A DNA stretch of 64,000 nucleotides from a virus. Below the pieces are notes generated by a model. The model ran no database searches. It was not told the origin of the DNA and saw only the letters and a program-made list of their open reading frames with translations. Of this stretch, positions 8,276-43,417 are shown piece by piece (the stretch's first letter is position 1; each line of letters opens with the position of its first letter). The stretch lies in IMG/VR virus record IMGVR_UViG_3300035698_012408; one strand, written 5' to 3'. The translations under genes and the position numbers were made by a program.

Positions 8276-8316
8276 AACGTGCCCTGCGGCCGATTTTAAC
8301 CGACCGTGGGCACGTT
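8276..8316 (-). terminator. inverted repeat downstream of the repeat-tailed paralogue
   Basis: AACGTGCCC...GGGCACGTT forms a perfect 9-bp stem with a 23-nt loop. On the minus strand it is followed by TTTCTATG. Confidence 0.3.
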
Positions 8317-8360
8317 GTATAGTCACACAGCGATTTGCATCGGCGTGGTACAATTTTTGA

Positions 8361-8858
8361 CTACGCAGACGACGATGACAAGCTCGCGCTTTCGCTTACG
8401 CTCGCGCTTTCGCTTACGCTCGCACTATCGCTTACGCTCGCACTGTCGCTTACGCTCGCACTGTCGCTTACGCTCGCACTGTCGCTTACGCTCGCACTGT
8501 CGCTTACGCTCGCACTTTCGGACACAGGCACGTACGTCGGATCAACGACACCGAGAACACCCCCGACGATCTCAATCGACTTGGGTAGCTCATCGACCGT
8601 ATCCCAAAGAATGGGGGCCGGTCGGCTGTTGATACGAAGACTGCCCGTTTTCAAGGCCCGCTCCAAAGCGTCGAACTTTCGGCGTCGCCCACCTTGCTGG
8701 TGTAGGATACCGAGCGAAGCAAGCAAGTCACCGGGAACTGCGGCAACCTCGCCAGCGTCCAGTCGCATACCGCGTGGGCCAAGAAAGCCGAAAACGCGGG
8801 CACCGCCAGAAAGATTTTCGACGACGGTGTACAGCTCGTCTTGTGCTGGATTTGCCAT
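8361..8858 (-). CDS. head-module paralogue A with a C-terminal (SASVSD)n tandem-repeat tail (decoration/fibre candidate)
   Basis: 165 aa. The first ~105 aa are about 75% identical by eye to the neighbouring 129-aa ORF. The C-terminus is 8 hexapeptide repeats. Confidence 0.7.
   Translation of the reverse strand: MANPAQDELYTVVENLSGGARVFGFLGPRGMRLDAGEVAAVPGDLLASLGILHQQGGRRRKFDALERALKTGSLRINSRPAPILWDTVDELPKSIEIVGGVLGVVDPTYVPVSESASVSDSASVSDSASVSDSASVSDSASVSDSASVSESASVSESASLSSSSA
8382..8525 (-). repeat. 18-bp in-frame tandem repeat, about 8 copies
   Basis: The unit GCTCGCACTGTCGCTTAC (plus strand) is repeated head to tail with a few substitutions. It encodes SASVSD/SASVSE on the minus strand. Confidence 0.9.
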
Positions 8859-8911: not shown

Positions 8912-9301
8912 TTAAATTTCCGCACCCTGTACAAGGGAGCTGCTACTGAGACTGAAGCTATAACTCTTCGGCACGTACGTTGGATCAACAACGCCGAGAG
9001 TACCGCCGACGATCGCAATCGACTTCGGAACCTCGTCAACCGCGTCCCAGAGAACTGGGGCGGGGCGGCTATTGATTTGCAACGAGCCGGCCTTCAGGGA
9101 CCGCTCCAGGGCGTCGAACTTCCGACGGCGCCCACCTTGCTGGCTTTGAGAGCCAAGCGAGGCGAGCAAATCACCGGGGATCGTAACGACCTCGGAGGCA
9201 GCCAAACGCATCCCTCGGGGACCGAGGAAACCGAACACTCGCTCGCCACCAGAGAGATTCTGGACGACTGTGTAGAGTTCGTCTTGGGATGGATTTGCCA
9301 T
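8912..9301 (-). CDS. head-module paralogue B (no long repeat; Ser-rich end SYSFSLSSSSL)
   Basis: 129 aa, starting MANPSQDELYTVVQNLSGGERVFGFLGPRGMRL, versus MANPAQDELYTVVENLSGGARVFGFLGPRGMRL in paralogue A. Both share the upstream sequence GGGAGAAATAA. Confidence 0.7.
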   Translation of the reverse strand: MANPSQDELYTVVQNLSGGERVFGFLGPRGMRLAASEVVTIPGDLLASLGSQSQQGGRRRKFDALERSLKAGSLQINSRPAPVLWDAVDEVPKSIAIVGGTLGVVDPTYVPKSYSFSLSSSSLVQGAEI

Positions 9302-9364: not shown

Positions 9365-9796
9365 CTACGCCGCGGGCTGTTGCTGCTGTTGTGCCGCGTG
9401 GGCATTGACAGCTTGCAGACTCAACACCGCGTGAGCGATAGTCGGGTCGAACGATGCTTGAGCGGCGGCCTGTTTGACCATTTGCGCGCTGGCGTCGAAC
9501 TTGGGCGTATCATAACCACGTGCTTGCAACTGCTGCTGGAGGTGGGCACTTGCACCAGCGAGCAACGGATTGCCGGCGGACGCTGTCTTTTCCACTTCCG
9601 TGTCGTGGGCCGACCGCAACTGGGCCGCCATCGACATCATTTCCATCGCCTCAGTTTCGTTTTGAGGACGAATTCCGTAGTCTTGAGCGAGCTTCTCAAA
9701 GAACACCGGAGCGTAAACCCGCTGATGCACGACGGCATACGCGGTTTCCGGGTCCATAACTTGAGGAGCACCCGCGTTTGGATTGTCTTGCGACAT
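9365..9796 (-). CDS. hypothetical helical protein downstream of the MCP
   Basis: 143-aa ORF, Ala/Gln-rich, with an ACGGAGA SD. No recognisable domain. Confidence 0.5.
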   Translation of the reverse strand: MSQDNPNAGAPQVMDPETAYAVVHQRVYAPVFFEKLAQDYGIRPQNETEAMEMMSMAAQLRSAHDTEVEKTASAGNPLLAGASAHLQQQLQARGYDTPKFDASAQMVKQAAAQASFDPTIAHAVLSLQAVNAHAAQQQQQPAA

Positions 9797-9892: not shown

Positions 9893-10822
9893 TTACGCGA
9901 AGTCGGCTCGGGCGATGCCACCGGCGTGTCCGATACTTCCACCCATCGTCTGATAGGCGAAGAATTCGAGCATGTACGCTTCACGACGAATGTACATGGT
10001 CGTATCTTCTAGCAGATACGACTTACCGATGAACTTGGGATCGGCGAACATGAACATCGAGTCGTCGGGGACCAGATCGCGCTTGATCGTGATGATCCAA
10101 CGCATGTTCATGAAGTTGGCTTCAGCCCAACCGTTCTTGATGACGTCCTGGGAGAAATCTCCGCCCATTTCGTCACGTCCAAACTTCTCGATCTCCTTGA
10201 TCGTCACGTTGTTGATCAGGCACGTATGCGATTCGAGATGACTCGGACCGCGCGGCATGATCTTACGGGCGTCTTGGAGGGTCTCACGGGTGATGCCACC
10301 TTCAATGGTTTCCCACTGAACGACATTGCCGTTGTACGGCACCGGGACGTCCGGGCCGATCATCAAAGCGTTGCACGCAGAGATGAATTTCGAGTCTTCT
10401 TCGGCTAGCATATCTTTGATGCTATTATCCGAAAGGACCTGTCGAATGTCCATGACCCATGTGCGAAGCTCGTCCACGTCCTTGACGAATCGAGGCGTGA
10501 CAATGCGGTCGAACATTACGCGGTAACGAGGACCACGAATGTAGACATTGACAGGCAACGTCGCGAACGGAATCGAGATCGCAGCCGGGGAATCCGGCTC
10601 TTTGTCGACGACTTTGACAGGCTTGTCGGTGTCGACTTGCCGGTCCAACTCGTCGTTGGAAATCTGGAGGGGTGGAAGAATTCGGCGGAAGAAGCCGTCC
10701 TCACGCATCTTGGTTCGCGTGAAGTCGTTGACGGCGTCAATCGCTTGCTTCTCCATCCCGGGAGTTTGCAGTTGCTCAAACAGTGTCTCGTTGAGCAGCT
10801 GGGTATCAGTTTGGGTTGCCAT
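9893..10822 (-). CDS. major capsid protein, HK97-fold type
   Basis: About 309 aa. The C-terminus TTMYIRREAYMLEFFAYQTMGGSIGHAGGIARADFA is typical of HK97-like MCPs, and the position after scaffold/decoration candidates fits. ATG at 10822 has an ACGGAGG SD. The track ORF starts at 10858. Confidence 0.75.
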   Translation of the reverse strand: MATQTDTQLLNETLFEQLQTPGMEKQAIDAVNDFTRTKMREDGFFRRILPPLQISNDELDRQVDTDKPVKVVDKEPDSPAAISIPFATLPVNVYIRGPRYRVMFDRIVTPRFVKDVDELRTWVMDIRQVLSDNSIKDMLAEEDSKFISACNALMIGPDVPVPYNGNVVQWETIEGGITRETLQDARKIMPRGPSHLESHTCLINNVTIKEIEKFGRDEMGGDFSQDVIKNGWAEANFMNMRWIITIKRDLVPDDSMFMFADPKFIGKSYLLEDTTMYIRREAYMLEFFAYQTMGGSIGHAGGIARADFA

Positions 10823-10907
10823 CGTAGCAAACCTCCGTGTTTTCGGGATGTCAGCCAATCATGGCCGATTGATTACAATGTACGCTCTGCTTTCGGAAGA
10901 CCACCTG

Positions 10908-12103: not shown

Positions 12104-13657
12104 TTAGCCCTGATAATTCATCAGTTCAAGCAAGTGTGCCTTCATTTTTTCGCGAAGTAGCCGCTCAGGCGAACCATCCGCGGCTTCCTTCTGACGATAA
12201 CGACCGGACATCTGGAATGCCTTAGCCGCACTTGCGAGCTTCATACCTTCGCTCATGGGAGGCATGGCACCTTCGGGAGGCATTCCGCCGCCGGGAGGCA
12301 TTCCGCCACCTTCGGGGGGCATTCCACCTTCGGGAGGCATGGCACCTTCGGGAGGCATTCCGCCACCGGGAGGCATTCCGCCACCTTCGGGAGGCAGCCC
12401 CATGCCCTCTTCGGGCGGAGGGCCAGCTTGCGCGAGGGCTTCGATCGGAATACCAAGCTCTTCAAGAGCTGCAATCAGCTCCATGATAGCTTCTTCTTCG
12501 GACGGACCACCGAGGCCTCCGCCACCCATCTCGCCGCCACCCATCTCGCCGCCGCCACCCATCATCGGGTCGCCGCCGCCACCTCCCATGATACCGCCGG
12601 GATCGCCGCCGCCACCAAGGAGTTCGCCGAGACTTCCGCCACCTTCACCGCCACCCTCAGCGGGCATTGGTCCACCACCGCCATCGGCGCCTTCGGCATC
12701 CGACGCACCCGAACCGCTGTCGCCAGGATTGTTATTATCCTCGGCGTCAGCCATATCGGCCGCTTGCTTCTGGTGGAAGGCAGTGAGATAGCTGCCGAAC
12801 AGATCGGCATCGACGTTGGCGTCAGCGATAGTGTCATTGAGACACTCAGCAACACTGGATTGTGCCGCCGTCTTTTCGACGCCTAGATGCGTGGCCAGCT
12901 CGTAGCCAGCCTGAAGATCGGGATTGCCAGCGGCCATCCCAGCAGTGTTACCGGCCTTCACGGCGTCGGCAGCTTGCTTGATCATGATGTCGAGCTCACT
13001 CGCTTGCTTCTCCCCAGCCGGGGCTTGGCCCGACATCTGGGTCGAAGGCGCTGCGGGTGTATTCTCGCCAGCGGCCGACGGATTCAGGTTAGCGCTGGTG
13101 GCCTGAGCCTCGGCCAGTGCTTCCTTCGTCAGTTGACCACCGAGACCGTTGGTGAGGTCAGCAAGAATGCCGTTGGCCAGACCGTCACTGAGCGTTTTCA
13201 GCTCACTGACACTGGCGTTGGCATATTTGTGACCATCGAGAGAACTGTTGTCGGTGGCCGCGGGATGTGAAGTCCCGGGGTCATCCTTACCGGCTTTGTA
13301 GTCGTTCTCCACCGAAGGGTCTTCCCCGGTAGCAGACTGGGACGTGCCGATATTCAATTGAGCGTCATCCTGACGACCGTCCGTGTTATCGGGGGTCTGG
13401 TCGACGCCGGGTGTACCTTGATCGGCTTTCACGTCAGAAGCATTTTCGCCGGAGCGAGCCCCTTCAGTGGCCGATTGGCCCCGGTTATCGACACTCGTGG
13501 TCGGATGCGTGGACGAACCTTGGTAACCTCCCGGATCAGCAGGAGTAGGAGACTCGCCCTGCTTGACGCGGGCGGCCGCCTGCTTCTCCGTTTGGATTTC
13601 GTCCGCAAGCGAATGGAGAGCCGAAAATAAACGGCCCTGCTGAGCGTTAGCGGTCAT
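12104..13657 (-). CDS. low-complexity Met/Pro/Gly-repeat protein (scaffold/internal-protein candidate)
   Basis: 517 aa with GGMPPEGAMPPEGGMPPEGGGMPPGGGMPPEG repeats and a GDPMMGGGGEMGGGEMGGGG stretch. AAGGAG SD upstream. Confidence 0.6.
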   Translation of the reverse strand: MTANAQQGRLFSALHSLADEIQTEKQAAARVKQGESPTPADPGGYQGSSTHPTTSVDNRGQSATEGARSGENASDVKADQGTPGVDQTPDNTDGRQDDAQLNIGTSQSATGEDPSVENDYKAGKDDPGTSHPAATDNSSLDGHKYANASVSELKTLSDGLANGILADLTNGLGGQLTKEALAEAQATSANLNPSAAGENTPAAPSTQMSGQAPAGEKQASELDIMIKQAADAVKAGNTAGMAAGNPDLQAGYELATHLGVEKTAAQSSVAECLNDTIADANVDADLFGSYLTAFHQKQAADMADAEDNNNPGDSGSGASDAEGADGGGGPMPAEGGGEGGGSLGELLGGGGDPGGIMGGGGGDPMMGGGGEMGGGEMGGGGLGGPSEEEAIMELIAALEELGIPIEALAQAGPPPEEGMGLPPEGGGMPPGGGMPPEGAMPPEGGMPPEGGGMPPGGGMPPEGAMPPMSEGMKLASAAKAFQMSGRYRQKEAADGSPERLLREKMKAHLLELMNYQG

Positions 13658-19570: not shown

Positions 19571-22120
19571 TTAGATGTCCGCGGAGTCACCGAGATCAAT
19601 GTCTCTGGCGGACTCTTCGGGGTACGGTTCAATTGTCTTCTGCTTCAGGAAGAGCACGACGTCACCGACCATCTCGAACGCGTTGCGTAACGAGTCTTCG
19701 AGTTCGGGGAGGTCCTGCTTGCCGAAGCGGTCAGCGAACTGGTCGCTGTGCCAATAGAACATGAACAGGATACGGCCGAGTCGATCCATCCCCTTCACGA
19801 GGTCGGGAATATACCGATCGATCATTGTGTCGTCACGAACCGCTCTCAGCATGCTGCTGATCATGGCCGTGTCGAAGATCTCCTTCTGGCCGGTATCTGC
19901 CGCCTGCTGGACAGCATTGATGTCCATCGGGTCGGGCATGTTGTTCGGGTTCACGTTGTAGATGTTCGGGTCGGTCGCAGCCCCTTCCAATCCGGGCACC
20001 CCGACTTCTTCTTGATACGACGGCATCGTCGGGCCATCAAAGCCCATCGGATTGTAACCACCGCGATCCGGTTCTTGCATCGGCGGAGCGGTCGGGCCAC
20101 CACTGTCAGTCAGGTACGGATCAGCATACTTGATCCGGCAACGGAACGGTCCCGGTCGCAAGCTGCGGCACTCAACCTCCGCCTGCTTGAGCAGATGGCG
20201 GCTAATGTCTTCGCGGAGTCCGTGATCCCGCACCAGCTGAACCAACGCACCGACTTCGTTCTGGCCGGCACTCTTGTTGATATGAAACTGAGTTCCGTCG
20301 TGCCGAATCTCCAGAGCCGCTGTCTTGCGCATGATCAGGTTCTGGGCGTCCAGCAGGCTGCCCGGCTGGATCGGTTCGTTGTCGCTGTGGTCGTCGCTGC
20401 CGCCCACGGCGCAAGGCTGGGCACAGCAATCGTCATTGTCATCACGATGCTTTCGCTCCCAGCGATCCGAGGACGTCTCTTTGATCTTGAGGATCTTGTA
20501 GCCATCAGGGATGTAGAGATCGCCCATATTCGAGCGGAGCTGCGTACCCTTCTTCGCGTCGAAGTGGATACGGGCTCCATGATCCCAGCTGCAATACTTA
20601 TCGTAGCTGATGCCAATCTCGTGAGACTGCGAGTGATACTTGTCCAAACCCGTGGACAAGTAACCATGCTTATCCGCGTTCTCGGAGAAGGCCACATCGT
20701 ACGAGTCGTCCCCGATCTCCTTGTGGAGTGCGAACGTCGTCGTCGCGTTGCGCCGCGGCCCGACAGCGATATAGCGGTGCTTGTCGCTCATGGAGACGGA
20801 GCCCTCGGGAATGCCGTCAAACCATTCCATCCAGCTCTCTTCGCCGCCCAGGAGCCCTTCGTCGAGCTGGCCAGCGACCCAGACCGCGTCACGATCGGCG
20901 CTGGTCCAGTCCTTGGTGTCGAGATCGACAATCACGCAATGTGGTAGCCGCCCATCCGGGCCGTGCGGCTTCATCACGATCAGGCACTTCTTGAAGTCGT
21001 TCGGCTTCGCTAGGACCATGTAGATCCCGGTCTCGCTCGGATTGCTCAGCTTTTGTTCGACCTGGACGTTGTACGGTACCGATACTTCGTCGCCCGTCCG
21101 CTTGTCTTCGATCAGCACGTGTTCCTTGAGCAGCTTCTCGGCATCCTCTTCGTCCAGTCCTTCGGGAACGCCCTCTACCCAGGACGCGTCCATCGTGATG
21201 ATCACGACTTTGCCCTTAGCATCAGGCCCCTTGTCCCCGTCCGCCGCCTCTTTCTCCAACAGATCCATGACGGACCCGTTGCACGGCTGCGTTCGCGGTT
21301 CGGGCTGACGGTACGGGTCATCCAGGATCGAGCTGCGTCGCATTCGCACGCCCGCTTCCTTGACGGCTGCCTGGAGTTCGCCGACCCCGTGCCAGCGATC
21401 GAAAGCGGCCGCCAGGACGGGTTTACGTTGCAGCGTGTCCGCAAGGACCTGCAACATGGGCAGTCCGGCCTGCTTGATGAAATGCCCGAGATCGAGCCGC
21501 TCATGGCAGTGAGCCTCGAAATCTTCGATCGCCGAACCGAAGTCACTTACGCACATGTGGGCATACTTCGGCAAGAACGGCTGGACAGACGACGCGTACT
21601 TGTAGGGTGATTGGCTGAGCCGCGTCAGATCCGGCTGCATCACACCCAGTTCGGACGTGTTCTTGTCGACGCCGGAGCCGAGAATGTTTGGCCGCCGGTT
21701 GAGAATGTAGTTGAGCCAGTTTTCCTTCATGGGCACGAACATGTCTTGATTGCTGATATACAGCAATTCGTGGCCCTTGAGATCGCCCGATAGGAAGAAC
21801 ACCGGCGCGAACAGCTGGTGGGAACCGACCTTGAAGGCCATGACACCCACTGCTTTGGTGTTCTCCTCATTCCGGTCGAGCAGCTGGAACCCAAGCTCGT
21901 GATCGAGCAACGTGGGAGCCTTGTCACGCAAAAACGCATGCGCGAGATTGCTAAATGCTTGCTCGAATGGAACATCTTGACCATCACCACCAAGCTCCGC
22001 GACTTTGATCATGACACCTTGGTCGATCATAGCCTGTTGGCATTGACCGAGCCAATGTGCCGCTTCCGCGGGCATGGGTGTAGATTGATTAAGATTAACA
22101 GCAGGTTGTGCAGTCGTCAT
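19571..22120 (-). CDS. large conserved hypothetical protein; portal-protein candidate by size and position only
   Basis: 849 aa, the first gene of the head block, with an acidic C-terminal tail (EESARDIDLGDSADI). No motif-level identification. Confidence 0.35.
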   Translation of the reverse strand: MTTAQPAVNLNQSTPMPAEAAHWLGQCQQAMIDQGVMIKVAELGGDGQDVPFEQAFSNLAHAFLRDKAPTLLDHELGFQLLDRNEENTKAVGVMAFKVGSHQLFAPVFFLSGDLKGHELLYISNQDMFVPMKENWLNYILNRRPNILGSGVDKNTSELGVMQPDLTRLSQSPYKYASSVQPFLPKYAHMCVSDFGSAIEDFEAHCHERLDLGHFIKQAGLPMLQVLADTLQRKPVLAAAFDRWHGVGELQAAVKEAGVRMRRSSILDDPYRQPEPRTQPCNGSVMDLLEKEAADGDKGPDAKGKVVIITMDASWVEGVPEGLDEEDAEKLLKEHVLIEDKRTGDEVSVPYNVQVEQKLSNPSETGIYMVLAKPNDFKKCLIVMKPHGPDGRLPHCVIVDLDTKDWTSADRDAVWVAGQLDEGLLGGEESWMEWFDGIPEGSVSMSDKHRYIAVGPRRNATTTFALHKEIGDDSYDVAFSENADKHGYLSTGLDKYHSQSHEIGISYDKYCSWDHGARIHFDAKKGTQLRSNMGDLYIPDGYKILKIKETSSDRWERKHRDDNDDCCAQPCAVGGSDDHSDNEPIQPGSLLDAQNLIMRKTAALEIRHDGTQFHINKSAGQNEVGALVQLVRDHGLREDISRHLLKQAEVECRSLRPGPFRCRIKYADPYLTDSGGPTAPPMQEPDRGGYNPMGFDGPTMPSYQEEVGVPGLEGAATDPNIYNVNPNNMPDPMDINAVQQAADTGQKEIFDTAMISSMLRAVRDDTMIDRYIPDLVKGMDRLGRILFMFYWHSDQFADRFGKQDLPELEDSLRNAFEMVGDVVLFLKQKTIEPYPEESARDIDLGDSADI

Positions 22121-22240
22121 GACAGCGCTCCGTCCCTGGTACGCGGGGTGATCGTTTCACTACATTCTATCCTATCAGGAAGCGTAGCGGAATACGATAT
22201 AGCCCTACCCTGTTATTTTAGCTTCTTCCGGTTATATCTG

Positions 22241-24142
22241 CTACTGCGTTGATTTACTGGTTGAATTATCTTGCCAACCCTGTGTCAAACCTTCTCGTCC
22301 GAAGCTCTCCCCACGTGCCAACGCTGGCACGTAACTACTGCCCGCTTCGTCTGAAACTGCCCCTCGTCGAGCACCTTCAAGCAGGCTATTCTTCTGGTAG
22401 CTTCCGAGCATCCGTGTCATCCAGTCCGGGTCGTGGGCGGCGTTGGCCATGCCCCTGATCATCTCTGGCTGGAATGGCGGCTGCTCATTATGCACCGTAA
22501 CACTCTTGACCCCGTAATTGGTCAAATCTGCTAGCATTGAAGGGCGAATCTGTGTACCGATGGAGTGATGCAGGATCGGCTGCTCCAGGTATTTACCCAC
22601 TGCCTGACCCGGCGGCAGCACCTGAAAACCATTCCGTGACTTCCAGTTGGATTCGACCAGCTGGTACGGCACCACATCATCCTGCACCCAGTCTCCCACC
22701 TCCTCGGTCAGCCGCACATGGTTGATTAACCCACGGGCCAACAGCTCAATGTTTCGTCGATCTCCGCTTGTCCCTGAGTCCTGCAAAACTTGTCGAAACG
22801 CGGACATGAGGTATCGACGACCCTCGCCAATCCCCTTGTGCTTCACGATTTCGCTCGGATTTGGTGTACCCTCGGAGAGCACGTCGCCGGCCTCCACGGT
22901 ATCACCGCGTTTCACCTTCAGCGGGAAACCACGAGCCACATAATGCTGCTCACTGCCGACATCTACGTAAGATCCACCCTGTGGGGCTTCGCGAATATCC
23001 GTGACTTTGCCATCATGTTGCGAGTGGGCTGCCCCACCTTGGAACGTCTTCGGGACCTGCACGAGCTGATTGATGTACTTGAACCCGGAAATTGCCCCGG
23101 CGCCAGCGGCTCCAGCGATCCCGCCGGTGTGCTTTGAGCTGATTTGGGCCTGCGTGATCGGTTCGGCAAGTGCCTGGGCGGCTGCGATACCCACATAGTC
23201 GCCGATCGGGGACAAACCGCCTCGTTCCCGGTGCCCGACGTCTCTTGCGTAGACACCGCCGTCTTTCGGGCCACCCACGATCGGGCTGCGTACCAGGATA
23301 TTCTCAACCCCTTCATCCTTCAACTCCCGCAGGATTTTCGGACTCAGTACGGTATTTCTGGCATACGGGCCGACAGGATGAGCCAATAAGGCCCCTTCAT
23401 TATCCATGTCGTCGGTGGATACTGCCAGCCCCCGTGGCTGCTCAATGTCATATTCGTCGTCGCTGTCGACACGAGACACGAGCAATCGATGGGCTGCCTG
23501 CACAAGCTGCTTTGCGAAGAAACCTGCGTCCTGCGTGGCCGATTTGACGTCAATTACGCCTTTTCTGGCCCCAAACGCTCCCGCGAAGTATTCGTGGGGT
23601 TTCAGCCCCATCGAATAGCTGCGGGTCACAGGGATCGGCAACACCCGCCCTCTGTGATCCGTGTATAACAAATCGGCTCCACGAAGGCTATTAAGATTAA
23701 ATTTGTTCCCTCGGGAGCCTGATATGGCTTGCTGGGCAAGCGGGTTTTGTTCTGCTTGGCTCTCTTCAAACACGTCATCTACGAGTCGCGTCTGATGTTC
23801 GCCAGTCACTTCTATGATTCGTTGCTCTTTTTGTTCCGTCGACAGCTTAGGGTCTGCATAAATAGTACGCAATTCCTTCCCAAGTTGCAACCGCATCTTA
23901 CGAGCTGCAAGACTTTGCCGCAAGGCCGATAGCCCAAATGAGTAGCCGCCTGTGGTAAAAGCAGCGTCTCGGCCGACGTCGGAAAGCTGCTTAGCGATGA
24001 CCCGATATTTGTCAGGATGATTCTTTGCGACCTCGGTCAGCAGGGCCTTTATACCCTTCTTATCAAGCACACGCTCATCATCCCGCAGTTCTGCGGGAAG
24101 CGAGCGATTGATCATGATTTGGCCGACAGTGGTCTTACGCAT
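22241..24142 (-). CDS. rpoC: DNA-directed RNA polymerase beta' subunit, C-terminal half
   Basis: 633 aa. Starts TTVGQIMINRSLP...FTTGGYSFGLSAL, like bacterial beta' after about residue 620. Has a trigger-loop-like SSKHTGGIAGAAG and RRYLMSAFRQVLQDSGTSGDRRNIELLARGLINHV (compare ...DKHIEVIVRQML). Confidence 0.85.
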   Translation of the reverse strand: MRKTTVGQIMINRSLPAELRDDERVLDKKGIKALLTEVAKNHPDKYRVIAKQLSDVGRDAAFTTGGYSFGLSALRQSLAARKMRLQLGKELRTIYADPKLSTEQKEQRIIEVTGEHQTRLVDDVFEESQAEQNPLAQQAISGSRGNKFNLNSLRGADLLYTDHRGRVLPIPVTRSYSMGLKPHEYFAGAFGARKGVIDVKSATQDAGFFAKQLVQAAHRLLVSRVDSDDEYDIEQPRGLAVSTDDMDNEGALLAHPVGPYARNTVLSPKILRELKDEGVENILVRSPIVGGPKDGGVYARDVGHRERGGLSPIGDYVGIAAAQALAEPITQAQISSKHTGGIAGAAGAGAISGFKYINQLVQVPKTFQGGAAHSQHDGKVTDIREAPQGGSYVDVGSEQHYVARGFPLKVKRGDTVEAGDVLSEGTPNPSEIVKHKGIGEGRRYLMSAFRQVLQDSGTSGDRRNIELLARGLINHVRLTEEVGDWVQDDVVPYQLVESNWKSRNGFQVLPPGQAVGKYLEQPILHHSIGTQIRPSMLADLTNYGVKSVTVHNEQPPFQPEMIRGMANAAHDPDWMTRMLGSYQKNSLLEGARRGAVSDEAGSSYVPALARGESFGREGLTQGWQDNSTSKSTQ

Positions 24143-24389
24143 TAAATCTTACATCCGGTAACGGTACTTGCCCGATCGATTGCACCATAACAGTCTTGTG
24201 CAGTCCCAGGCCATGCAAAAGCGACTGAAACTCCTGTTCCCGCCCCTCTTCCAAAGCTGAGGCTACTATCGTCCCTGGTTCCACCTCCACAGCAGCAACG
24301 ATCGGGTTGTCGTATCGATCATACACGACAACCCGCGTTACCTCAATACGCTGGGGATTACCCAGCTTGGTGTGAAACTCAACTATCAT
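24135..24389 (-). CDS. small hypothetical protein embedded between the two RNAP genes
   Basis: 84 aa, with coupling overlaps at both ends (ATGA upstream; an 8-nt overlap with the beta'-C start). Confidence 0.5.
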   Translation of the reverse strand: MIVEFHTKLGNPQRIEVTRVVVYDRYDNPIVAAVEVEPGTIVASALEEGREQEFQSLLHGLGLHKTVMVQSIGQVPLPDVRFNA

Positions 24390-25353
24390 TGTCGTCCTGC
24401 TGCTGTGCGACTGCGAAGCAAGGCGGCCACGGCGGTTGCACCTTGCATCGTCGTATGTCCTCGCATACCTTCCTCGAACGGCGTGCCGAGGGCCTGGGCG
24501 GTCTTGTTGACTGCACCCAGATCATCACCCGCCTCGGTTCGAGACAGCGGATCTTTTGAGCCGCCGGCCGAGATTGACTGCGTGGCAGGTCGACGTCCGG
24601 GATGCCCGCCAGGAAGCGGAGCCGGCGTCGAGCTCTCAGGTGGCACGCTGGCCATCTTGTCAATGAACTCGGAGAAAGAGTCTACTGCGGCACCCATCTT
24701 CTCGACAGGTGCTCCACCACCCCCGCCGCCAGCCGCCAATTCAGGCGACGCAGCTTGCATCGGATCAATGGCACCGATCGCACTACCGCCACCGCCGCCA
24801 CCGGCTGGGGCAGCGCCGCCAGCTTGTGATGGATCTTGTGGGCCGCCTTGCATCGCCGCTTCCGGCGCTGGTGTTGGCTGCCCTGGAGGCATGACGAGCA
24901 CGCCCGGGTCCAGCTTGATGTCCATCGCGTTCATCAGCGTGGTCATCTGTTGCTGCATGTTGTACATGCGGGTGTCGAGCATCTGCATGTACTGCTCTGG
25001 CTTCATCTTAGGAGGAACGCCACCGGCAGCCGCAGCAGGGTCAGTCGGGGGCATCCCGGGCGCCGGAGGCATGCCCGGAGGCATCCCACCCATCATCGCC
25101 GGGTCCATCCCAGGTGGCGGCATTCCGCCCATCATTGCCGGGTCCATCGGAGGAGCACCACCAGGAGGCATGCCGCCCATCATCGCCGGGTCCATCGGAG
25201 GAGCACCACCAGGAGGCATACCACCCATCATAGGATCGCCACCCGGCGGCATCGCGCCTTCAGGTGGAACCACGGCGGCCTTTTCCATCGGCGGCCCGCC
25301 AGCCTGCTCCCAGACCTTCTGCTGAGCCATTTTTAGTAGTACAGGATTCAACA
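24386..25353 (-). CDS. Met/Pro/Gly-repeat low-complexity protein embedded between the RNAP genes
   Basis: ATG at 25353 has a perfect AAGGAGG SD. The track ORF extends to 25684 across the upstream gene. Repeats are GGMPPGGAPPMDPAMM x3. Related in composition to the 12104-13657 product. Confidence 0.6.
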
Positions 25354-25382
25354 TCTTGTCCTCCTTAACGGTGTCTTGGCCG

Positions 25383-28300
25383 TTATTTGTCATCTTCGAC
25401 GATTTCGACCCTGCGGCCGACACCGATCTTACCTTGTTTATACGCTCTGATTGCGTCAGCCGTCGTGGCAAACACCGCAGCCGGCTTGTCTTCATCCACC
25501 CGTGCCGACGCTTCGTAGAGCCCGCCGACGTATTCCTGAGATGGCATATAGTGTACCCCGAAGTCCGCGGCAGACAATAGGTTTCTGGACGGGAGCATCT
25601 TTTCGAGGGCTTCATGTGCCTCTGCTTCCGTGGCCGGCACGTGATATTGCATCGCATCACCGTCAAAGTCAGCGTTGAAACCACTGACCACCAACGGACT
25701 TACCTTCAGCACGTCACCTTTCACCAGCTTCGGCCTAGCTGCCATCATACCATATCTGTGCAGCGTTGGCGCCCGATTGATTACGACGACGCCGTCTTGC
25801 ATCTCTTTGAGGAGCGCTTCCCGAGCGACCGGCGATCTCTCTTCAGCGGCACGGATGGCCTCACGACGGGACCATCCTTTGCGAACGAGCCGTCTGGTGA
25901 CGATGGGTTTGTAGATGCTCCAGGCTTGCTCTTCAGGAAGCCCAACTTGATCCATATCGAGGTCAGGGTCCGGCGCAATAACCGACCGCCCGACCATGTC
26001 GACGGCGCTGCCGAGCAATCGTCGCTGCACCATTCCGAGTTTTGGGGAAGTACCAAAGACATGTCGAAGAATTCCCTTAACCTTGCGTTCTTGGTTCTTC
26101 GGATGCGTCGGGTCGCCAAGGCCAGTCACCGCTCGAAACGCTTGATACAGCGCCAGCCGTTCATCGCCTATGTCCTCGTCATTGAGTAGCCCAGCCGCTT
26201 CCTTTAGGTTTTTGTTTGCATCCCATACTTCCTTGTATAGATAATTTGGATCAGCCACCAACGGCAGCTTTCTCTTACCCATCGTCGACACCGGGCGGAA
26301 GGCCGGCGGCAGCACGGGCACCTTCGACAGCAGCCAATCACGTGGGTGCATGCCAAGACGTTTCGCATCTTTCAGGTAGCCAAGCCGGCGAACCGCAGCA
26401 TCACGGGATGTGCGTTTGCCACTCTTGATCTCTTCTCGGGCTCTGGCCAGCTCGCCGTCGAGGTTCATGTTATCCAGGGCGGAGCCGACAGCCTTCGGAC
26501 CCGTGGCCCCGTTCAGCCGCTCTTTCCCGCTGAGCACGTCCTCAAACTTCTGTTTCGTTAGCCCCAACACTCGTCGAATCGGCTCTTCCATTACCGGGTT
26601 GGGTAACGGCTCATGCAGCCGAATGAAGCTCCACCGATTACCACCGCCTTCCGGCGTCATGTGGCCACCGGTGAGTGCTTGATCAAACAACCCGCCGCGA
26701 ACCGGCTCCATCGTCTTCCAGTCAACGGTTCCCACGTTCTGGAGCTCCCGGTTACCCGCGAGCTTGTCAATGTCGTCGTTGCGAAGTGCCATTATATGCG
26801 TCTGCGACCCATCGCGCACGACGTTGATACCGGCTGCCTTCAAATGCGACACATACTTCTGATACATGTGTGGCACCTTCGGCGTCGGCGGATTGTAGCC
26901 CGACATGTACTGAGCCCAATATTCAGGGCTGGCCTGTCCACGAATCATGTTACCGCTGCGTAGGAACTCTGTCGCTCCGTGGGACAGCAACGCTCCGACT
27001 TCCAGCATGCCGATTCGCTTGGCCCCTTCCGGGCCACCCTTGGCTGGTGTCTGATCCGCCGTGTAAGCTCCGAGTCCGCGACCCTGTCCTTTGGATTCGG
27101 CGGTATGGTGCAGCTTCATGAACCAGCGATTGCCGGTAAACACATCAGGTATCTTGCGACCAGTCTCCGAGTCCATGATCGTCTCGGTGTCCGCTATGCC
27201 GGCCTTCTTCAGCTCGGCCAACGCGTACTCCACGAGATCGTCTTCATCCTGGAAGTCAGGAACCTTGAACGCTTCGCCGCGGGCTGCCGCGATCTTCCCG
27301 AGAGCTGCCTCCACGATCTGGGCGGGATTGGTTCGACTGATCACACCGAGTGGGTTGAGCAGCACCTCGTACGGTTGCCCATCCTGATCCGACGGCATGT
27401 CGGCATCCGGGACGATGCGAGAGATGATACCCTTGTCGCCATACCGCCCGGACAGCTTGTCGCCGACCTCCATCGGGGCAATGGACTTCACCACCACAGC
27501 TGATCCGCCATCGTCATCCACGACGTCCGTAACCATGCCTGGAGTGTGATGATCCCACGTGACAGTCTGATTAAGGTAACCGGGTGAACGGCCACGCAGC
27601 ATTGATTTACGATTTCGTTCTCGTTCCCTCGCCACGAGGATCAGCGGATCACCGCTCTTTACCTCTGTGCCGGGGCGAATGAATCCGTTATCGTCGAAGT
27701 TCTCCAGCATGGCTTTGTCATAGGCGGCGGGGAATACCGAAATGAATGCGTTCTTTCCGCGTTGATCCTTGCCGTCCCACTCGTACCCATGCTGGTACAT
27801 GTGCTCCGAGCTCATCTTTTTGGCGAATGACTCTGAGATGACGTTGGCGTCCTCGAAGTTGAGCCCTCCGAAGGGGACGTACGCGACGCGGGCGTTCCGG
27901 CCGAGCGCTGACACGCCTTGCATGTCCGTGAAGTTCGACCGAGCGAGCAACTGCCCTTCTTCGACAGTTTCACCAACCTGGACCGTTGGCGTGTTGTGGA
28001 TGAAGGTTTTTCGATTGTAGGGGAAGTTGTCGTAGAGAGGGATTTCTTCCGTGCCGCCGCCCTCTTTCGTAACCGTGATACTATCTCGATCGACAGCGGC
28101 AACACGACCACGACCAGGACTGTCCCACCTAACAGCACCCATGTGCTTAGAGTATTCATCTTCAAAACTCCGACCGGGTTGTCCGGGGACGCCACTCTGC
28201 ACCAGCGGGGCTTCTGCACCTACGACGGGCAATGCCTGCGTCAACATGCGAGCGGCCATCACCGCGCGTTGTCCCTTGACCATTGATTTCAACGGGATCA

Positions 28301-29828
28301 TATTACCGAGCGGGGAGAACGTGCTCTCCATGTCGGGAATCTCATAATCCACCGTGTTGCGTGGCACCATGCGGACCTTGCCACTCTTCAACACCGGCAC
28401 CAACGCCTTGGGGTCGCGTTTCCCGCCACCTGGAAATGCTATCACGGCATCTGCCAAGTCCTGAGGACTTCGATATACGGTCTCACCAGTCTTAGTATCC
28501 ACCACTGGGGTGTAGACACGTCCGTCGTCACCCTTTCGCGCGGCACTTGCCATCCTCGCATCGACGCCTACCTTCCCGCTCTCTGGCGTGCGTAGAAAAT
28601 CCACAAAGCCAAACTGCGTTGGCTGCACTGCCCGAGCTTCGTCTGGTACTGCGTCCAAACTTGGGATACCACCTTCACCCATCCGCGTTACGCGGGAGTG
28701 CTGGTCGAAAATGTCTGCCGGATTGATCTCTTCCAGGGGGATACCCAGGCCGCTGCTCATGAGTGCGGCTTGAATCACGTCGTTGTAGGCTCCAGTCGGC
28801 ATCCGCTCAAGATCACCACGCCCCGAGGCCTTCCACAACAGCCTCTGCGTGACGCTACGCGCCTTGCCGAGCCGTTCCGCGAACAAGTCCTCCGGTCCCA
28901 TCATGGACTGGTAGGCCATCGAATCACGATCGTCAGGCTCTGCTTCGCCGCGAGACACGGCCAACAGCTTGCGAGTGACCGCCAGCAGCGTATCCGGCCC
29001 GACGTTCTCGAACGGTTCGCCGAGTGTCCGCTTCGTCACCTCGGGGTCCAGCGACATGGCCATGAAGGCCTCGGCAACGCGAGCCTTCTGCTCTATGGAG
29101 CTGCCTTCGCCGTCCTTGAACAGCTTGGAGTGTAGCTTGCGGATGACGGCGGGGTCATCCTTCTGGGCGTTCGTGTAAGTGAGATCATTGCCCCAGGCTT
29201 CCCGCAGCTGCGTGTCCGTCACCCCTTGGGCCCGCAAGAGCGGGAGGAGCGGCATCCTTGCCTGCCCCATTTGAATGCGGAATATCCCGCTCTGTGGGTC
29301 AAGGAATATTCGGTGACTGAAGCCCTTCTTCACGTTGACGTGGCTTTCCAGTTCACCATTGTCTTTCATGCGAGTGAACACACCCGGACGCAGTCGCATC
29401 TGGTGTGCCATCGTGTATTCGTTCCCGTTGACAACAAAAGTCCCGCGATCAGTCATCCACGGGATCTTGGCAACCGTGGCCTTCTTCCGCCCCAGTTCTG
29501 CTCCTTCCGCATCAGACAGCACCCACGTGCCACGCAGCGGCCGCGATAGACTTTTTCGCGATAGAATAGCCTTCTTTTGTTCGGCGATGGAGAAGCTCTC
29601 GGGGCCGTGGTACGCCACGTCCGTCAACGCGAGAGTATGCCGGGGGTTGGACACGGGTTCGATAGCTTGGGCGGCCGCCAACGCGTTGGCAAACAGACGT
29701 TTGCGAGTACCCGGTGTGTCACCGAACTTGCGATACGCGGGCGTAGCTTCCTCTTTGTCAGCCACGGGAGGAGCGAGGCTGGCATCAGGACCAAGTACCG
29801 ACTGAGAAATTAAACTGTCGTTAGCCAT
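25383..29828 (-). CDS. rpoB-rpoC fusion: DNA-directed RNA polymerase beta subunit fused to the N-terminal half of beta'
   Basis: Beta motifs: GTFVVNGNEYTMAHQMRLRPGVF, GRYGDKGIISRIVPDADMP...LLNPLGVISRTN, FMKLHHTAESKGQGRG, GMLEVGALLSHGA. Then, in the same frame, beta' motifs: VPVLPPAFRPV, INRAPTLHRYGMMAARP, NADFDGDAMQYHVP. The start at 29828 (MANDSL) overlaps the upstream stop as ATGGCTAA. Confidence 0.9.
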   Translation of the reverse strand: MANDSLISQSVLGPDASLAPPVADKEEATPAYRKFGDTPGTRKRLFANALAAAQAIEPVSNPRHTLALTDVAYHGPESFSIAEQKKAILSRKSLSRPLRGTWVLSDAEGAELGRKKATVAKIPWMTDRGTFVVNGNEYTMAHQMRLRPGVFTRMKDNGELESHVNVKKGFSHRIFLDPQSGIFRIQMGQARMPLLPLLRAQGVTDTQLREAWGNDLTYTNAQKDDPAVIRKLHSKLFKDGEGSSIEQKARVAEAFMAMSLDPEVTKRTLGEPFENVGPDTLLAVTRKLLAVSRGEAEPDDRDSMAYQSMMGPEDLFAERLGKARSVTQRLLWKASGRGDLERMPTGAYNDVIQAALMSSGLGIPLEEINPADIFDQHSRVTRMGEGGIPSLDAVPDEARAVQPTQFGFVDFLRTPESGKVGVDARMASAARKGDDGRVYTPVVDTKTGETVYRSPQDLADAVIAFPGGGKRDPKALVPVLKSGKVRMVPRNTVDYEIPDMESTFSPLGNMIPLKSMVKGQRAVMAARMLTQALPVVGAEAPLVQSGVPGQPGRSFEDEYSKHMGAVRWDSPGRGRVAAVDRDSITVTKEGGGTEEIPLYDNFPYNRKTFIHNTPTVQVGETVEEGQLLARSNFTDMQGVSALGRNARVAYVPFGGLNFEDANVISESFAKKMSSEHMYQHGYEWDGKDQRGKNAFISVFPAAYDKAMLENFDDNGFIRPGTEVKSGDPLILVARERERNRKSMLRGRSPGYLNQTVTWDHHTPGMVTDVVDDDGGSAVVVKSIAPMEVGDKLSGRYGDKGIISRIVPDADMPSDQDGQPYEVLLNPLGVISRTNPAQIVEAALGKIAAARGEAFKVPDFQDEDDLVEYALAELKKAGIADTETIMDSETGRKIPDVFTGNRWFMKLHHTAESKGQGRGLGAYTADQTPAKGGPEGAKRIGMLEVGALLSHGATEFLRSGNMIRGQASPEYWAQYMSGYNPPTPKVPHMYQKYVSHLKAAGINVVRDGSQTHIMALRNDDIDKLAGNRELQNVGTVDWKTMEPVRGGLFDQALTGGHMTPEGGGNRWSFIRLHEPLPNPVMEEPIRRVLGLTKQKFEDVLSGKERLNGATGPKAVGSALDNMNLDGELARAREEIKSGKRTSRDAAVRRLGYLKDAKRLGMHPRDWLLSKVPVLPPAFRPVSTMGKRKLPLVADPNYLYKEVWDANKNLKEAAGLLNDEDIGDERLALYQAFRAVTGLGDPTHPKNQERKVKGILRHVFGTSPKLGMVQRRLLGSAVDMVGRSVIAPDPDLDMDQVGLPEEQAWSIYKPIVTRRLVRKGWSRREAIRAAEERSPVAREALLKEMQDGVVVINRAPTLHRYGMMAARPKLVKGDVLKVSPLVVSGFNADFDGDAMQYHVPATEAEAHEALEKMLPSRNLLSAADFGVHYMPSQEYVGGLYEASARVDEDKPAAVFATTADAIRAYKQGKIGVGRRVEIVEDDK

Positions 29829-30810
29829 ATTGCAGTTCGTCCGCCTCATCGTCTTTGCTGGTCGGGGCATGCGTCACGGTTGTGTAGATCGGTGCTGGAG
29901 CCTTAGCAGCCCGCTGCCGTTCGCGTAACCGCATCGCCCGGTTCATTATCTCCTGCTTACTCCGGCCTGTCGTGTAGTTGTACGTGGCCAGTCCTGTGCC
30001 GCCGGCAAGTAATGCCATCGCAGCCACTAACGCACCCTTACTGCCTTGCACGTTGTCATGCCCAAACGGCGAATACATCGTGTTGAAAATATCATTAAGA
30101 CCATAAGCGAGCTTTTCACGCATGTCGCCGCCTTCCATAGCGGCAACCCGGTCATAGAGGTCATCGATACCTAATGCGTCTCCCGCGTGCTTCGCCTGCA
30201 TGGCCTGTCGATACTGCGACGCCAACGCCTTCTGGTAGTCGGCTTTCGCGTCTGTTACCTCACCTTCCTCAGTGGACTCTCGCTCGCGATCGAGCAGCCA
30301 GTCAGTGAGCTTCCAGCCGCCGTACAGACCGCCACCAGCCATGCCGATACCTGCCGTAGTTCCCCACCAATCACCCAACGGTGATGCCGTCGAGATGTTG
30401 GGCAGCATTTGCGCGAGAGAGTTCCACCACGGGGGTTTCGCGGCAGGTCCGGCGGAGCGTTTCTCACGCTCTTCATCCCTTCCGTGGATCGTGACGGGCG
30501 GCGGGGCAACATGATGAGATACCGGCGACTGGGTGTCATGTACTAGATCATTAACGCCCACCAACGCACGAGCGCCGCCGCCGAATGCTGCACCTAGACC
30601 AGCCAACCGCATGAGCTGCTTGAAGGCTTCACGTTTTGCATTTTGCTGTGCCACATGCGACGTATAAGACGGCCCAGTCAGATCAACGAAAGCCGTTTTC
30701 TCCTGCAAAGCCGCGGGCTCTTGCGAAGCCGTCTTCGCCTTCGTAGCTTGGGCGTACAGCCCCGAAAGTCCCTTCGGTGACCGCTGCTGTTGCTGTCGTT
30801 GCTTGACCAT
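29821..30810 (-). CDS. glycine-zipper membrane protein
   Basis: ATG at 30810 has an AGGAGGGGG SD. The track start is 30894. Gly-rich hydrophobic segments are LAGLGAAFGGGARALVGV, GIGMAGGGLYGGW and LVAAMALLAGGTGLA. The C-terminus is acidic. Confidence 0.55.
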   Translation of the reverse strand: MVKQRQQQQRSPKGLSGLYAQATKAKTASQEPAALQEKTAFVDLTGPSYTSHVAQQNAKREAFKQLMRLAGLGAAFGGGARALVGVNDLVHDTQSPVSHHVAPPPVTIHGRDEEREKRSAGPAAKPPWWNSLAQMLPNISTASPLGDWWGTTAGIGMAGGGLYGGWKLTDWLLDRERESTEEGEVTDAKADYQKALASQYRQAMQAKHAGDALGIDDLYDRVAAMEGGDMREKLAYGLNDIFNTMYSPFGHDNVQGSKGALVAAMALLAGGTGLATYNYTTGRSKQEIMNRAMRLRERQRAAKAPAPIYTTVTHAPTSKDDEADELQYG

Positions 30811-32656: not shown

Positions 32657-32724
32657 GACATTTCTCCTGCGGTACTTAGAAACCAATTCCTACGTCTGAT
32701 TGTAACTGGTATTGCCCATAATAA

Positions 32725-41943: not shown

Positions 41944-42672
41944 TTATTCGTCGAAATAGCACTCAAGGTCGGTGCCGGTAAACTCTTGCTTCAGTTCCGT
42001 GTAATTCTCAATCTGCGATGATAAGGATCTAATCCCTACCTTCACTGTATTGGTTGTAGGCGCCGGGCACAATGCCGGATCTACATCAAGATGCTCGTAG
42101 ATGCGACGCATATACCGCAGCGGGGCTGCACACAGCGACTCGTACGTCAAAACGAAAGAATCCGTATAAGCTAGGCCCGTGGTGGACTGGAGCTGACGAA
42201 TGGCGTCAATATCCTGACGCAACGCAGCAGAGTCCACAACCAGCCGCTGATTCCGAATACGCTCAGCTTTACGCCGCCACCCCGCCTGATGCCGTCGAAT
42301 CTGCCATTTCCTGTGATGATCACCCAATTGATGAGACACGAACCGCCGCAGCAGGTTCCACCGCTGAAGCACGATAACCTTCGTGTCTTGAGGTAACAGC
42401 TTAAACAGATCATTGTACTCACGTGGGTTAGTCCAATGAGGCTGCACCCCTTGCCAGCCGTGAAACATGTGCGCGACCGCCCCGGAGCCCTGTGTCGCCA
42501 ACGTCCGCTGAATGCGGGCACTCGTACTCATTCGCGGTCGACCCGCTTTCGCTCCAGGATTAAACACCTCGCCATCACACGCCAAGTCGGGATGAGAGTT
42601 GATCAAGCCGCGGAGCATGTGCGTGCCGCACCGTGGAAAGGTCAAGACTAAAAATCCCTTTGGTTTTGCCAT
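41944..42672 (-). CDS. sulfotransferase (NodH/Stf0-like), paralogue 1
   Basis: GFLVLTFPRCGTHMLRGLINSHP (PAPS P-loop), LQRWNLLRRFVSHQL, YESLC...RRIYEHLDVDP, ends TDLECYFDE. Confidence 0.75.
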   Translation of the reverse strand: MAKPKGFLVLTFPRCGTHMLRGLINSHPDLACDGEVFNPGAKAGRPRMSTSARIQRTLATQGSGAVAHMFHGWQGVQPHWTNPREYNDLFKLLPQDTKVIVLQRWNLLRRFVSHQLGDHHRKWQIRRHQAGWRRKAERIRNQRLVVDSAALRQDIDAIRQLQSTTGLAYTDSFVLTYESLCAAPLRYMRRIYEHLDVDPALCPAPTTNTVKVGIRSLSSQIENYTELKQEFTGTDLECYFDE

Positions 42673-42688
42673 CTATTCAGTTCTCCGA

Positions 42689-43417
42689 CTATTCATTGAA
42701 ATAACACGCGATGTCAGTGTCTGCAAAACGCCTTTTCAATGACTCGTAATTGATTATCATGTCACGTAACGACCTACCCATATGCAGCGGTAGCGTCTCG
42801 GCTTCAATATTCTCGCAAGCATCCGGGTCCGCCCCGAGGTGCTCGTAAATGCGACGCATGTGAAACTCGGTGTGTAGACACAGCTGCTCATACGACACCC
42901 TGTAAGTATTTAGAAACTGGCAACCCCGCGTGGCTAGTATCACCCGAGCGGTGTGTATATCGCCTCGCAACCGCGCGGGGTCTAGCATCACACGTGCATC
43001 TCTTGCTTGCGTTACTAGAACCTGTGCATCACGCTTACTTCGCGTGACGTTCCATACGCTCTTCCTCGCCAACCGCCCCGACGCATACCGTCGCAATAGA
43101 TTCCACCGCTGAATGCACACGACTTTCGTGTCCAATGGTACTTGCTTGAACAAGTCGGCAAACCTAGTTCGTCGCCCTTTCGGCCAGCCGGTACAAGCAT
43201 GAGCTATCATACCAGTAAGCGGCCCCTGCCAATATTCATTTAGGCGAGCCTGCACGCCCCCTGATTCCTTGAACCTGCTAGGATCAAATACCTCATCATG
43301 ACACGTAATGGCTGGGTGTGCATTGAGCAGCGACCGTAAAAAATGACTGCCACTTCTCGGATACGAGAGTAACAGAAATCCTTGCTTACCTTCAGGGAAC
43401 ACCAAACGATCACTCAT
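42689..43417 (-). CDS. sulfotransferase (NodH/Stf0-like), paralogue 2
   Basis: MSDRLVFPEGKQGFLLLSYPRSGSHFLRSLLNAHP, IQRWNLLRRYASGRL, ends TDIACYFNE. ATG at 43417 overlaps the upstream stop as ATGAGTGA. Confidence 0.75.
   Translation of the reverse strand: MSDRLVFPEGKQGFLLLSYPRSGSHFLRSLLNAHPAITCHDEVFDPSRFKESGGVQARLNEYWQGPLTGMIAHACTGWPKGRRTRFADLFKQVPLDTKVVCIQRWNLLRRYASGRLARKSVWNVTRSKRDAQVLVTQARDARVMLDPARLRGDIHTARVILATRGCQFLNTYRVSYEQLCLHTEFHMRRIYEHLGADPDACENIEAETLPLHMGRSLRDMIINYESLKRRFADTDIACYFNE

Follow-up and report, generated by a model that had tools for sequence, protein, structure and literature searches.

The DNA analysed here (hereafter the window) is a stretch of 64,000 nucleotides (nt) from a virus, IMG/VR record IMGVR_UViG_3300035698_012408, in which nearly all genes lie on the minus strand. 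Four tightly packed open reading frames (ORFs) make up its RNA polymerase (RNAP) region: a fused gene that joins β and the N-terminal part of β′ in one frame (β-β′N), two small genes for proteins here called A and B, and a separate gene for the C-terminal part of β′ (β′C). Their coordinates, together with those of the modules within the fused gene and of the neighbouring genes, are collected in Table 1.

Table 1. Features of the RNAP region and its surroundings (positions are those of the window; aa, amino acids; RBS, ribosome-binding site; MCP, major capsid protein)
Feature	Position	Strand	Product or extent	Basis or remark
Upstream ORF	29821..30708	minus	~295 aa	end overlaps RNAP start by 8 nt; ORF of similar size here in relatives
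β-β′N fusion gene	25383..29828	minus	1481 aa from ATG at 29828	ORF, Pfam and PDB matches
β module	26817..29495	minus	residues 112-1004 = E. coli β 117-1338	phmmer against E. coli rpoB
β to β′ junction	26697..26816	minus	residues ~1005-1044	β C-terminus AAGINVV, then β′ N-terminus THIMALRNDDIDKL; no stop
β′ N-terminal module	25401..26696	minus	residues 1045-1476 = E. coli β′ ~55-550	motif and alignment
Site of deleted N-terminal β′ zinc ribbon	26637..26669	minus		GGHMTPEGGGN in place of the four-Cys segment
Protein A	24386..25354	minus	322 aa; Met/Pro/Gly/Ala-rich, no Cys	RBS AAGGAGG before start
Protein B	24135..24389	minus	84 aa	overlaps end of A by 4 nt and start of β′C by 8 nt
β′ C-terminal subunit gene (β′C)	22241..24142	minus	633 aa, begins MRKTTVGQIM	ORF and Pfam Rpb1_5
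849-aa protein gene	19571..22120	minus	849 aa	directly downstream of β′C; C-terminus resembles Arash gp218 and Vibrio phage D69 VPHD69_0266
MCP gene	9893..10858	minus	321 aa	29% identity to Arash MCP gp226 (E 3e-39); weak match to capsid protein 6wkk

Pfam domains of both large subunits were found in the fused ORF (Rpb2_6, 1.7e-52; Rpb2_3; Rpb1_1; Rpb1_2, 1.8e-26), Rpb1_5 (3.6e-23) was found in the 633-aa ORF, and the PDB sequence search with the two large proteins returned bacterial β and β′ chains only. The aligned β module stops no more than four residues from the C-terminus of E. coli β (phmmer), and its lysine motif (GDK..GR.G.KG) is intact as GDKLSGRYGDKG at residue 789 of the fused protein. 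Since the alignment skips E. coli β stretches ~222-421 and 884-1060, the two lineage-specific inserts of E. coli β that lie in these stretches are absent from the phage protein. Between the blocks the sequence reads HLKAAGINVVRDGSQ-THIMALRNDDIDKL...VRGGLFDQALTGG, that is, the β C-terminus with the β′ N-terminus directly after it. Residues 1089-1476 were aligned by phmmer to E. coli β′ 159-550, and the Mg2+-binding triad of β′, NADFDGD, is intact at residues 1385-1391 (25656-25676). Chain 1 is therefore a full β plus the first ~470 β′-equivalent residues, arranged head-to-tail. A first-pass annotation of the window, made from the sequence alone, had already placed β and β′ motifs in this one ORF with no stop in between; its count of about 80 residues beyond NADFDGD needs correction to 90. 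A further in-frame ATG lies upstream at 29870 and would give a 1495-aa ORF (25383-29870); the start at 29828 is the one chosen by the gene callers in three public assemblies (ENA, JGI and Logan).

The remainder of β′ is in the separate 633-aa gene, as the first-pass annotation had it from the opening TTVGQIM and the downstream motifs. Residues 118-349 of its product correspond to E. coli β′ 705-947 and residues 402-497 to 1190-1286; because the alignment jumps from β′ 947 to 1190 over phage residues 349-402, the trigger-loop insert of E. coli (SI3) is absent. The stretch aligned to 705-947 holds GARKG (23558-23572), which we take to be the bridge-helix region, and the intact trigger-loop motif SSKHTGG (23120-23140); RRNIELLARG was found as well as SSKHTGG. 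Together the two chains count 2114 aa, against an earlier estimate of about 2110.

That the long ORF is an assembly or frameshift artefact, or a chimera with a cellular rpoBC, was found to be extremely improbable. The identical 1481-aa protein is encoded on six contigs, three of them from the separate sources ENA, JGI and Logan. In a word-indexed search the fused protein found 1116 homologues, of which the best 120 all carry both β and β′ Pfam domains (PF00562 and PF00623), at 57-79% identity and mostly 1440-1515 aa in length. Furthermore, a 320-aa segment spanning the junction matched 847 clusters at 50% identity (full HMMER scan, E<=1e-30), and most of the best 150 of these cross the junction in one stretch, so that the junction is kept in hundreds of diverged clusters. 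The match to cellular RNAP was weak (209 bits to E. coli β across 1481 aa), which argues that the fused gene is not host DNA, and the neighbouring genes are phage structural genes. Neither a stop or frameshift at the junction nor near-identity to cellular rpoBC, the two findings that the first-pass annotation had said would undo it, was thus encountered.

Full-length matches in the phage collection were limited to Salmonella phage Arash (gp206, 1525 aa, plus gp216, 606 aa) and Vibrio phages D69, D148 and D181 (1527 plus 609 aa), which share the β-β′N plus β′C layout. The window phage, at ~215 kb, is of a large uncultivated clade distantly related to these phages; a contig with the identical protein B measures 215,361 bp, and one of the six contigs with the identical 1481-aa protein falls in the 0.2-1 Mb class. 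Its RNAP is a member of an Arash-like group whose architecture is visible in GenBank, with one ORF of ~1450-1530 aa for β plus β′ through NADFDGD and a second ORF of ~600-650 aa that opens at a TT.G motif.

The position of the cut in β′ was defined by several alignments. When the final 114 residues of chain 1 were joined to the opening 74 of chain 2, the composite aligned in a single stretch to unsplit β′ chains (8dkc_D, 454-647; 9n9p_D, 458-657). The two genes thus specify neighbouring, colinear portions of β′, and only ~10-17 residues of a variable hairpin are lacking between the pieces. In a MAFFT alignment of the junction regions, the end of the fused ORF falls at about E. coli β′ 551-555 and the start of the 633-aa protein at ~569-572, at the TTVGR motif (E. 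coli 572-576). The cut in Arash and D69 coincides with that in the window phage, and the cuts of phages RP13 (~515) and IME392 (~535) lie 35-55 residues from that of the window phage family (~569). Based on phmmer coordinates against PDB chains, the cyanobacterial γ chains align only to residue ~553-558 of their 624-626 and thus run ~60 residues past the end of the fused ORF; residue 6 of cyanobacterial RpoC2 aligns to residue 24 of the 633-aa protein, which places the phage cut ~19 residues upstream of the cyanobacterial split. The earlier proposal that the phage β′ is divided at the same position as rpoC1/rpoC2 consequently holds for the exposed segment, within ~20 residues, and fails for the exact position.

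The four RNAP-region genes are closely spaced: an 8-nt overlap between the upstream ORF and the fused gene is followed by a 28-nt gap to A, overlaps of 4 nt (A/B) and 8 nt (B/β′C), and then a gap of 120 nt. The fused gene, A, B and β′C look like one translationally coupled unit, and the RBS of A together with the overlap of the B start with the A stop points to coupling of A and B. This organisation was compared across 67 IMG/VR contigs, the longest of 235 kb, each with a close β′C relative. The order fused gene, A, β′C, ~800-aa gene was found in 60 of the 67, with A no more than 100 nt after the fused gene in 44 of those 60, and a small ORF stands at the position of B in 58 of the related loci; contigs reached through two database homologues show the same arrangement. 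The first-pass annotation was right in placing two ORFs between the halves of β′, yet its description of them as unrelated does not stand, as they are conserved members of the cluster.

Protein A belongs to a family of ~200-320 aa, largely of low complexity and conserved across the relatives, with an N-terminal motif NPxL..A..K..EK.A, a core motif KPEQ.MQ.LD.R.YNMQQ...M.A and a C-terminal motif A.AA.LRS; its gene contains a 48-nt tandem repeat (25119-25231). A second Met/Pro/Gly repeat protein, of GGMPP/EGGMPP type, is encoded in the head module (12104-13657, minus strand; tandem repeat 12257-12396), and its repeats resemble those of protein A. The protein B family is of 70-84 aa: a single-sequence database search with protein B found only itself, and with a profile, which was needed to reach relatives, 67 database homologues were found. 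The AlphaFold2 model of protein B (pLDDT 88) predicts five strands and a helix. Foldseek with this model gave no match at E<=0.001 in PDB or BFVD, and B is therefore not a recognisable ω, α, δ or ε; as far as the model allows, assignment to these or other known RNAP subunits was rejected. No Pfam or PHROG match, endonuclease families included, was obtained for A or B. When hidden Markov models (HMMs) of A and B were run against the loci of Arash, D69 and other phages, only the window copies were matched, so that the two proteins are specific to the clade of the window phage.

Inteins and LAGLIDADG elements are very frequent in orthologues of both RNAP genes, bringing their lengths up to 3350 aa, and in Vibrio phages D148 and D181 a homing-endonuclease insertion splits the fused gene. 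This frequency lends some support to the idea that the two β′ parts are rejoined, either through a split intein (trans-splicing) or through excision of a mobile intron carrying the two intervening ORFs. Such rejoining is nonetheless very unlikely. Chain 1 can be aligned to β′ up to nearly its last residue, and chain 2 from nearly its first, which leaves no room for split-intein halves; A and B lack endonuclease matches and are conserved proteins; A has an RBS and the start of B overlaps the stop of A, a sign of translational coupling; and mass spectrometry (MS) of Arash found gp206 and gp216 as separate proteins.

Both β′ zinc sites and all cysteines are missing from the polymerase. In E. coli β′ the ligands of the two zinc sites are Cys 70/72/85/88 and Cys 814/888/895/898. 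Where the first four stand, the phage protein reads GGLFDQALTGG-HMTPEGGG-NRWSFIRLHEP, a comparison made by eye with E. coli β′; a computed alignment (Arash gp206 with β′ 30-63) anchors GGLFD and no more. The second site reads S...G...Y..D (23450-23473 and 23231-23293). The loss of the N-terminal four-Cys ribbon, noted at first from the sequence, is thus borne out: a short GGHMTPEGGGN loop replaces it in a chain devoid of Cys. Over both chains no Cys occurs among the 2114 residues, with ~23 expected from the 1.1% of the window proteome, and zero Cys in both chains was likewise found in 45 of 50 intact IMG/VR orthologue pairs; of the first 40 listed database homologues, those free of inteins contain 0-1 Cys. 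The second β′ zinc site has kept precisely its four Cys in Arash and D69, and their fused proteins hold 1-2 Cys in total, too few for a four-Cys site, so that the N-terminal ribbon is presumably gone there too. For phage phiKZ, a single-case control, Cys content is 0.61% in the virion RNAP and 1.16% in the non-virion RNAP. The zero-Cys composition of the two chains fits a protein kept outside the cell.

No σ, α or ω was recognised near the RNAP genes. Pfam found none (E<=0.001) in the other 58 ORFs of the 64-kb window, which represents part of a ~215-kb genome, in agreement with the first inspection; the host may supply α and ω. σ70 region 2 was confirmed in Arash gp196 and D69_0246, which are among the σ70-family genes near RNAP in the Arash and D69 loci, yet jackhmmer searches with the σ factors of Arash, D69 and Cobetia phage Carin-5 found nothing in all window ORFs or in 73 related loci (within 10 kb of RNAP). 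A scan of the window for σ70-type promoters was at background (8 sites, against 5.6±2.3 expected). TAnAAT-like hexamers are ~9-fold commoner in intergenic DNA than over the strand as a whole (for example at 785-866, 8210-8360, 10859-10907, 22121-22240 and 32687-32724). They may be -10-like promoter elements or mere AT-richer spacers, and because intergenic DNA is AT-richer the enrichment is a weak lead only.

The β-β′N plus β′C layout was compared with known polymerases, and no description of it was found in full-text searches or in reviews of jumbo-phage RNAPs. Like the phage fusion, the rpoB-rpoC fusions of Helicobacter and Wolbachia join the β C-terminus to the β′ N-terminus in one frame; unlike it, they are cellular enzymes that keep a complete β′, α, ω, σ and the zinc sites. 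RpoC1 (γ) and RpoC2 of cyanobacteria and plastids resemble the phage enzyme in that β′ is cut in the same surface segment, after the NADFDGD barrel and ahead of the conserved block that follows. There, however, β is a separate gene, and in the phage TTVGQIMINRSLP opens the C-terminal piece ~19 residues earlier. Cyanobacterial β′ also carries a large insert at the SI3 position of the trigger loop; the window RNAP has none, and α and ω were not seen in the window. Given the different position and the fused β, the phage split is not of the cyanobacterial type.

RNAPs of the phiKZ/AR9 type, RP13 and IME392 share with the window phage the presence of phage-encoded ββ′ homologues; they have no α or ω, and none was seen in the 64-kb window. 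In phiKZ the virion-RNAP genes likewise lie among structural-head genes. In the phiKZ type, β is split into two or three pieces, nothing is fused, the enzyme consists of four to five polypeptides and each genome has two sets (reviews); by contrast, the β of the window phage is continuous over residues 112-1004. One set was seen in the 64 kb of the window. No σ homologues are reported for the phiKZ/AR9 type (reviews). The phiKZ-type β′ is described as cut after the catalytic barrel 'like cyanobacteria' (review), which, judging from the alignments, holds for the region and not for the exact residue. In PHROG, phiKZ-type families were matched at 1e-7 to 1e-30, and the unnamed families 24349 and 25354, with profiles of 1191 and 1216 residues, at 1e-57 to 1e-69 along the β and β′ portions. 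The window enzyme is hence not of phiKZ type, since its β is unsplit and fused and its sequence is far closer to bacterial RNAP; the difference from the four-to-five-fragment layout, stated in the first-pass annotation, extends across the family.

The multisubunit RNAP-encoding Caudovirales (mReC) are uncultivated large tailed phages with bacterial-like β and β′ by COG and Pfam and with RNAP near structural genes (Weinheimer & Aylward 2020, PMC7481178). Membership was judged by distinct ORFs for β and β′, neither shorter than 800 aa, the β′ one bearing NADxDGD. In the rows of their table consulted, β (920-1563 aa) and β′ (902-1370 aa) each have an ORF of their own, and neither fusion nor a split β′ is mentioned in the paper (PMC7481178). 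In the window it is the ORF with β that carries NADFDGD, and the ORF with β′ alone has 633 aa, so that membership of mReC, going by those rows with two separate ORFs, was rejected. Two cultured phages with other arrangements were also seen: Rhizobium phage RHph_Y65 has an unsplit 1127-aa β′, and Cobetia phage Carin-5 has the order σ factor, β′-like protein (1083 aa), β-like protein (927 aa).

The closest layout is thus that of Arash and the D69-type phages, with 31% identity over 95% of the fused protein, 25-28% for β′C, and RNAP genes that precede the MCP gene within the virion module. These distant relatives differ as follows: (i) the Cys of the second β′ zinc site are kept; (ii) A and B are absent; (iii) σ70-family genes lie nearby, and none was seen in the 64-kb window. 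In Arash, moreover, nine other ORFs, some on the opposite strand, lie between the gp206 and gp216 genes. The fusion is concealed by current annotation: the Arash paper names gp206 and gp216 "β" and "β′" and does not mention it, and the database labels are 'subunit beta' for Arash gp206 and 'hypothetical' for the D69 homologues. A SNF2-family helicase, gp217, follows directly after β′C in Arash (23067-24485 of the examined locus) and is present in the Arash virion preparation, and a closer relative of the window phage encodes a giant SNF2/2H-SAK/SET protein upstream of RNAP; this recalls the RNAP-linked helicase of phiKZ-type phages.

Downstream of β′C, the window carries gp218-like, gp222-like and MCP genes in the same order as Arash and D69. 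The 849-aa protein has an orthologue downstream of β′C in 66 of the 67 related loci (no more than 150 nt away in 48 of 60 measured); a PDB sequence search with it gave no match, and its Arash counterpart gp218 is a structural protein detected by MS (Arash paper). A 506-aa protein matches Arash gp222 (E 9e-29). The MCP and the gp222/gp218-like genes being syntenic with Arash, the RNAP cluster lies inside a virion module, as proposed when the cluster was first seen to abut the head module on the same strand, and the shared synteny indicates an arrangement inherited from the ancestor of a broad lineage. PHROG and Pfam were nearly blank for the structural genes of the window.

These results describe what is, by its sequence, a complete ββ′ catalytic core of the two double-psi β-barrel kind, divided over two chains, with its motifs intact and preserved by selection; its genes are probably expressed with the virion genes. 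We consider it likely that this phage RNAP core, bacterial in type and with no α or ω seen in the window, is not only encoded in the virion module but also packaged. Packaging is supported by the virion-module position, by the parallel with the phiKZ virion-RNAP genes, by the Cys- and zinc-free composition and by Arash proteomics: in Arash virion preparations gp206 gave 3516 spectra, the most of any protein, gp216 gave 1210, and the σ factor gp10 was present (Arash paper).

Several observations weigh against packaging or against parts of the working proposed below. Ribonucleotide reductases, RNA ligases and kinases were present in the Arash preparation too, 88 proteins were called structural, and the authors allow for carry-over of abundant proteins (Arash paper). 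The spectral count of gp206 is high for a low-copy cargo. Cys depletion is uneven among putative structural proteins of the window (12 Cys in the 849-aa protein, 13 in the 506-aa protein), and the phiKZ control for Cys is one case only. That no σ, α or ω was found in the window or within 10 kb of the relatives' RNAP weighs on any account of initiation, and a replacement of α by the β-β′N link is purely conjectural.

The main alternative, held to be less probable, is that the enzyme is a functional phage RNAP that acts as a non-virion middle or late polymerase encoded in the structural block, its presence in Arash virions being contamination. The many plainly non-structural enzymes in the Arash MS list, and the contamination raised by the authors, agree with it. 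So does the number of RNAP sets in Arash, where each gene was found in one place: with a single set detectable, the Arash RNAP must work inside the cell too. Set against this, the RNAP gene has been kept in the virion module across lineages diverged to ~30% identity, and phiKZ virion-RNAP genes have a like genomic setting. An RNAP made only late would be unable to start the phage programme unless carried over, and the extreme, conserved Cys-free composition would need another explanation.

If the RNAP is packaged, as we favour, its working could be as follows. The covalent β-β′N link would take over the assembly-platform role of the α dimer; natural β-β′ fusions of Helicobacter and engineered ones of E. 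coli are functional. The enzyme would be produced late, together with the structural proteins, loaded into the head and co-injected, so that early phage genes are transcribed without recourse to the host polymerase, in the manner of phiKZ-type virion RNAPs. Promoter specificity might come from phage σ70-family factors such as those encoded by Arash and D69.

A bolder extension, which we hold less likely than not, is that the enzyme belongs to a distinct class of virion RNAP, two-chain and without α, ω, zinc or Cys. Its composition would have been selected for storage in the capsid and for passage, perhaps in a partly unfolded state, along the tail, oxidative damage and loss of metal being avoided. 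Protein A, described as disordered with one conserved helix, and protein B, an orphan fold, would then be dedicated subunits, chaperones of packaging or ejection, or possibly an initiation factor, and not bystanders.

The fused layout is common in environmental phages of ~200 kb and represents a third architecture of phage multisubunit RNAP, beside the phiKZ-type enzymes of four to five pieces and the mReC enzymes with separate β and β′. With two chains alignable throughout to bacterial RNAP, it offers a natural minimal ββ′ core for asking how the enzyme assembles without α and ω and functions without zinc sites. The cultured relatives, Arash on Salmonella and the D69 type on Vibrio, make packaging testable; if the enzyme is packaged, the lack of Cys provides a handle on how a protein of ~230 kDa survives in, and leaves, the capsid.

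Further features of the window, all on the minus strand where a strand is given, lie outside the RNAP cluster. Two tandem paralogues (9365-9796 and 8912-9301), both starting MANP.QDELYTVV.NLSGG, stand just downstream of the capsid gene, followed by an ORF (8361-8858) with a repeated SDSASV/SESASV motif and an 18-nt tandem repeat of 7.7 copies (8382-8520). A 348-aa ORF (6154-7200) holds a copy of the N-terminal segment of the MCP, LNE.LF.QL.TP...AIDAVN.FT..MRE.GF.RRI.PP.QISNDELDR, and looks, from this match, like a partial duplication of the MCP gene. Among the window ORFs, Pfam gave four matches to the sulfotransferase family and two to GT4 glycosyltransferases, a glycan-sulfation-like set unusual for a phage; they were placed in a block of paralogous ORFs (41944-46768) by ORF sizes and resemblance only. 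Finally, a 1556-aa protein (50163-54833), very Cys-poor and of low complexity, with PGAPVQGPQQ repeats (51026-51173 and 51237-51289) and no database match, may be a tape-measure or ejection protein.

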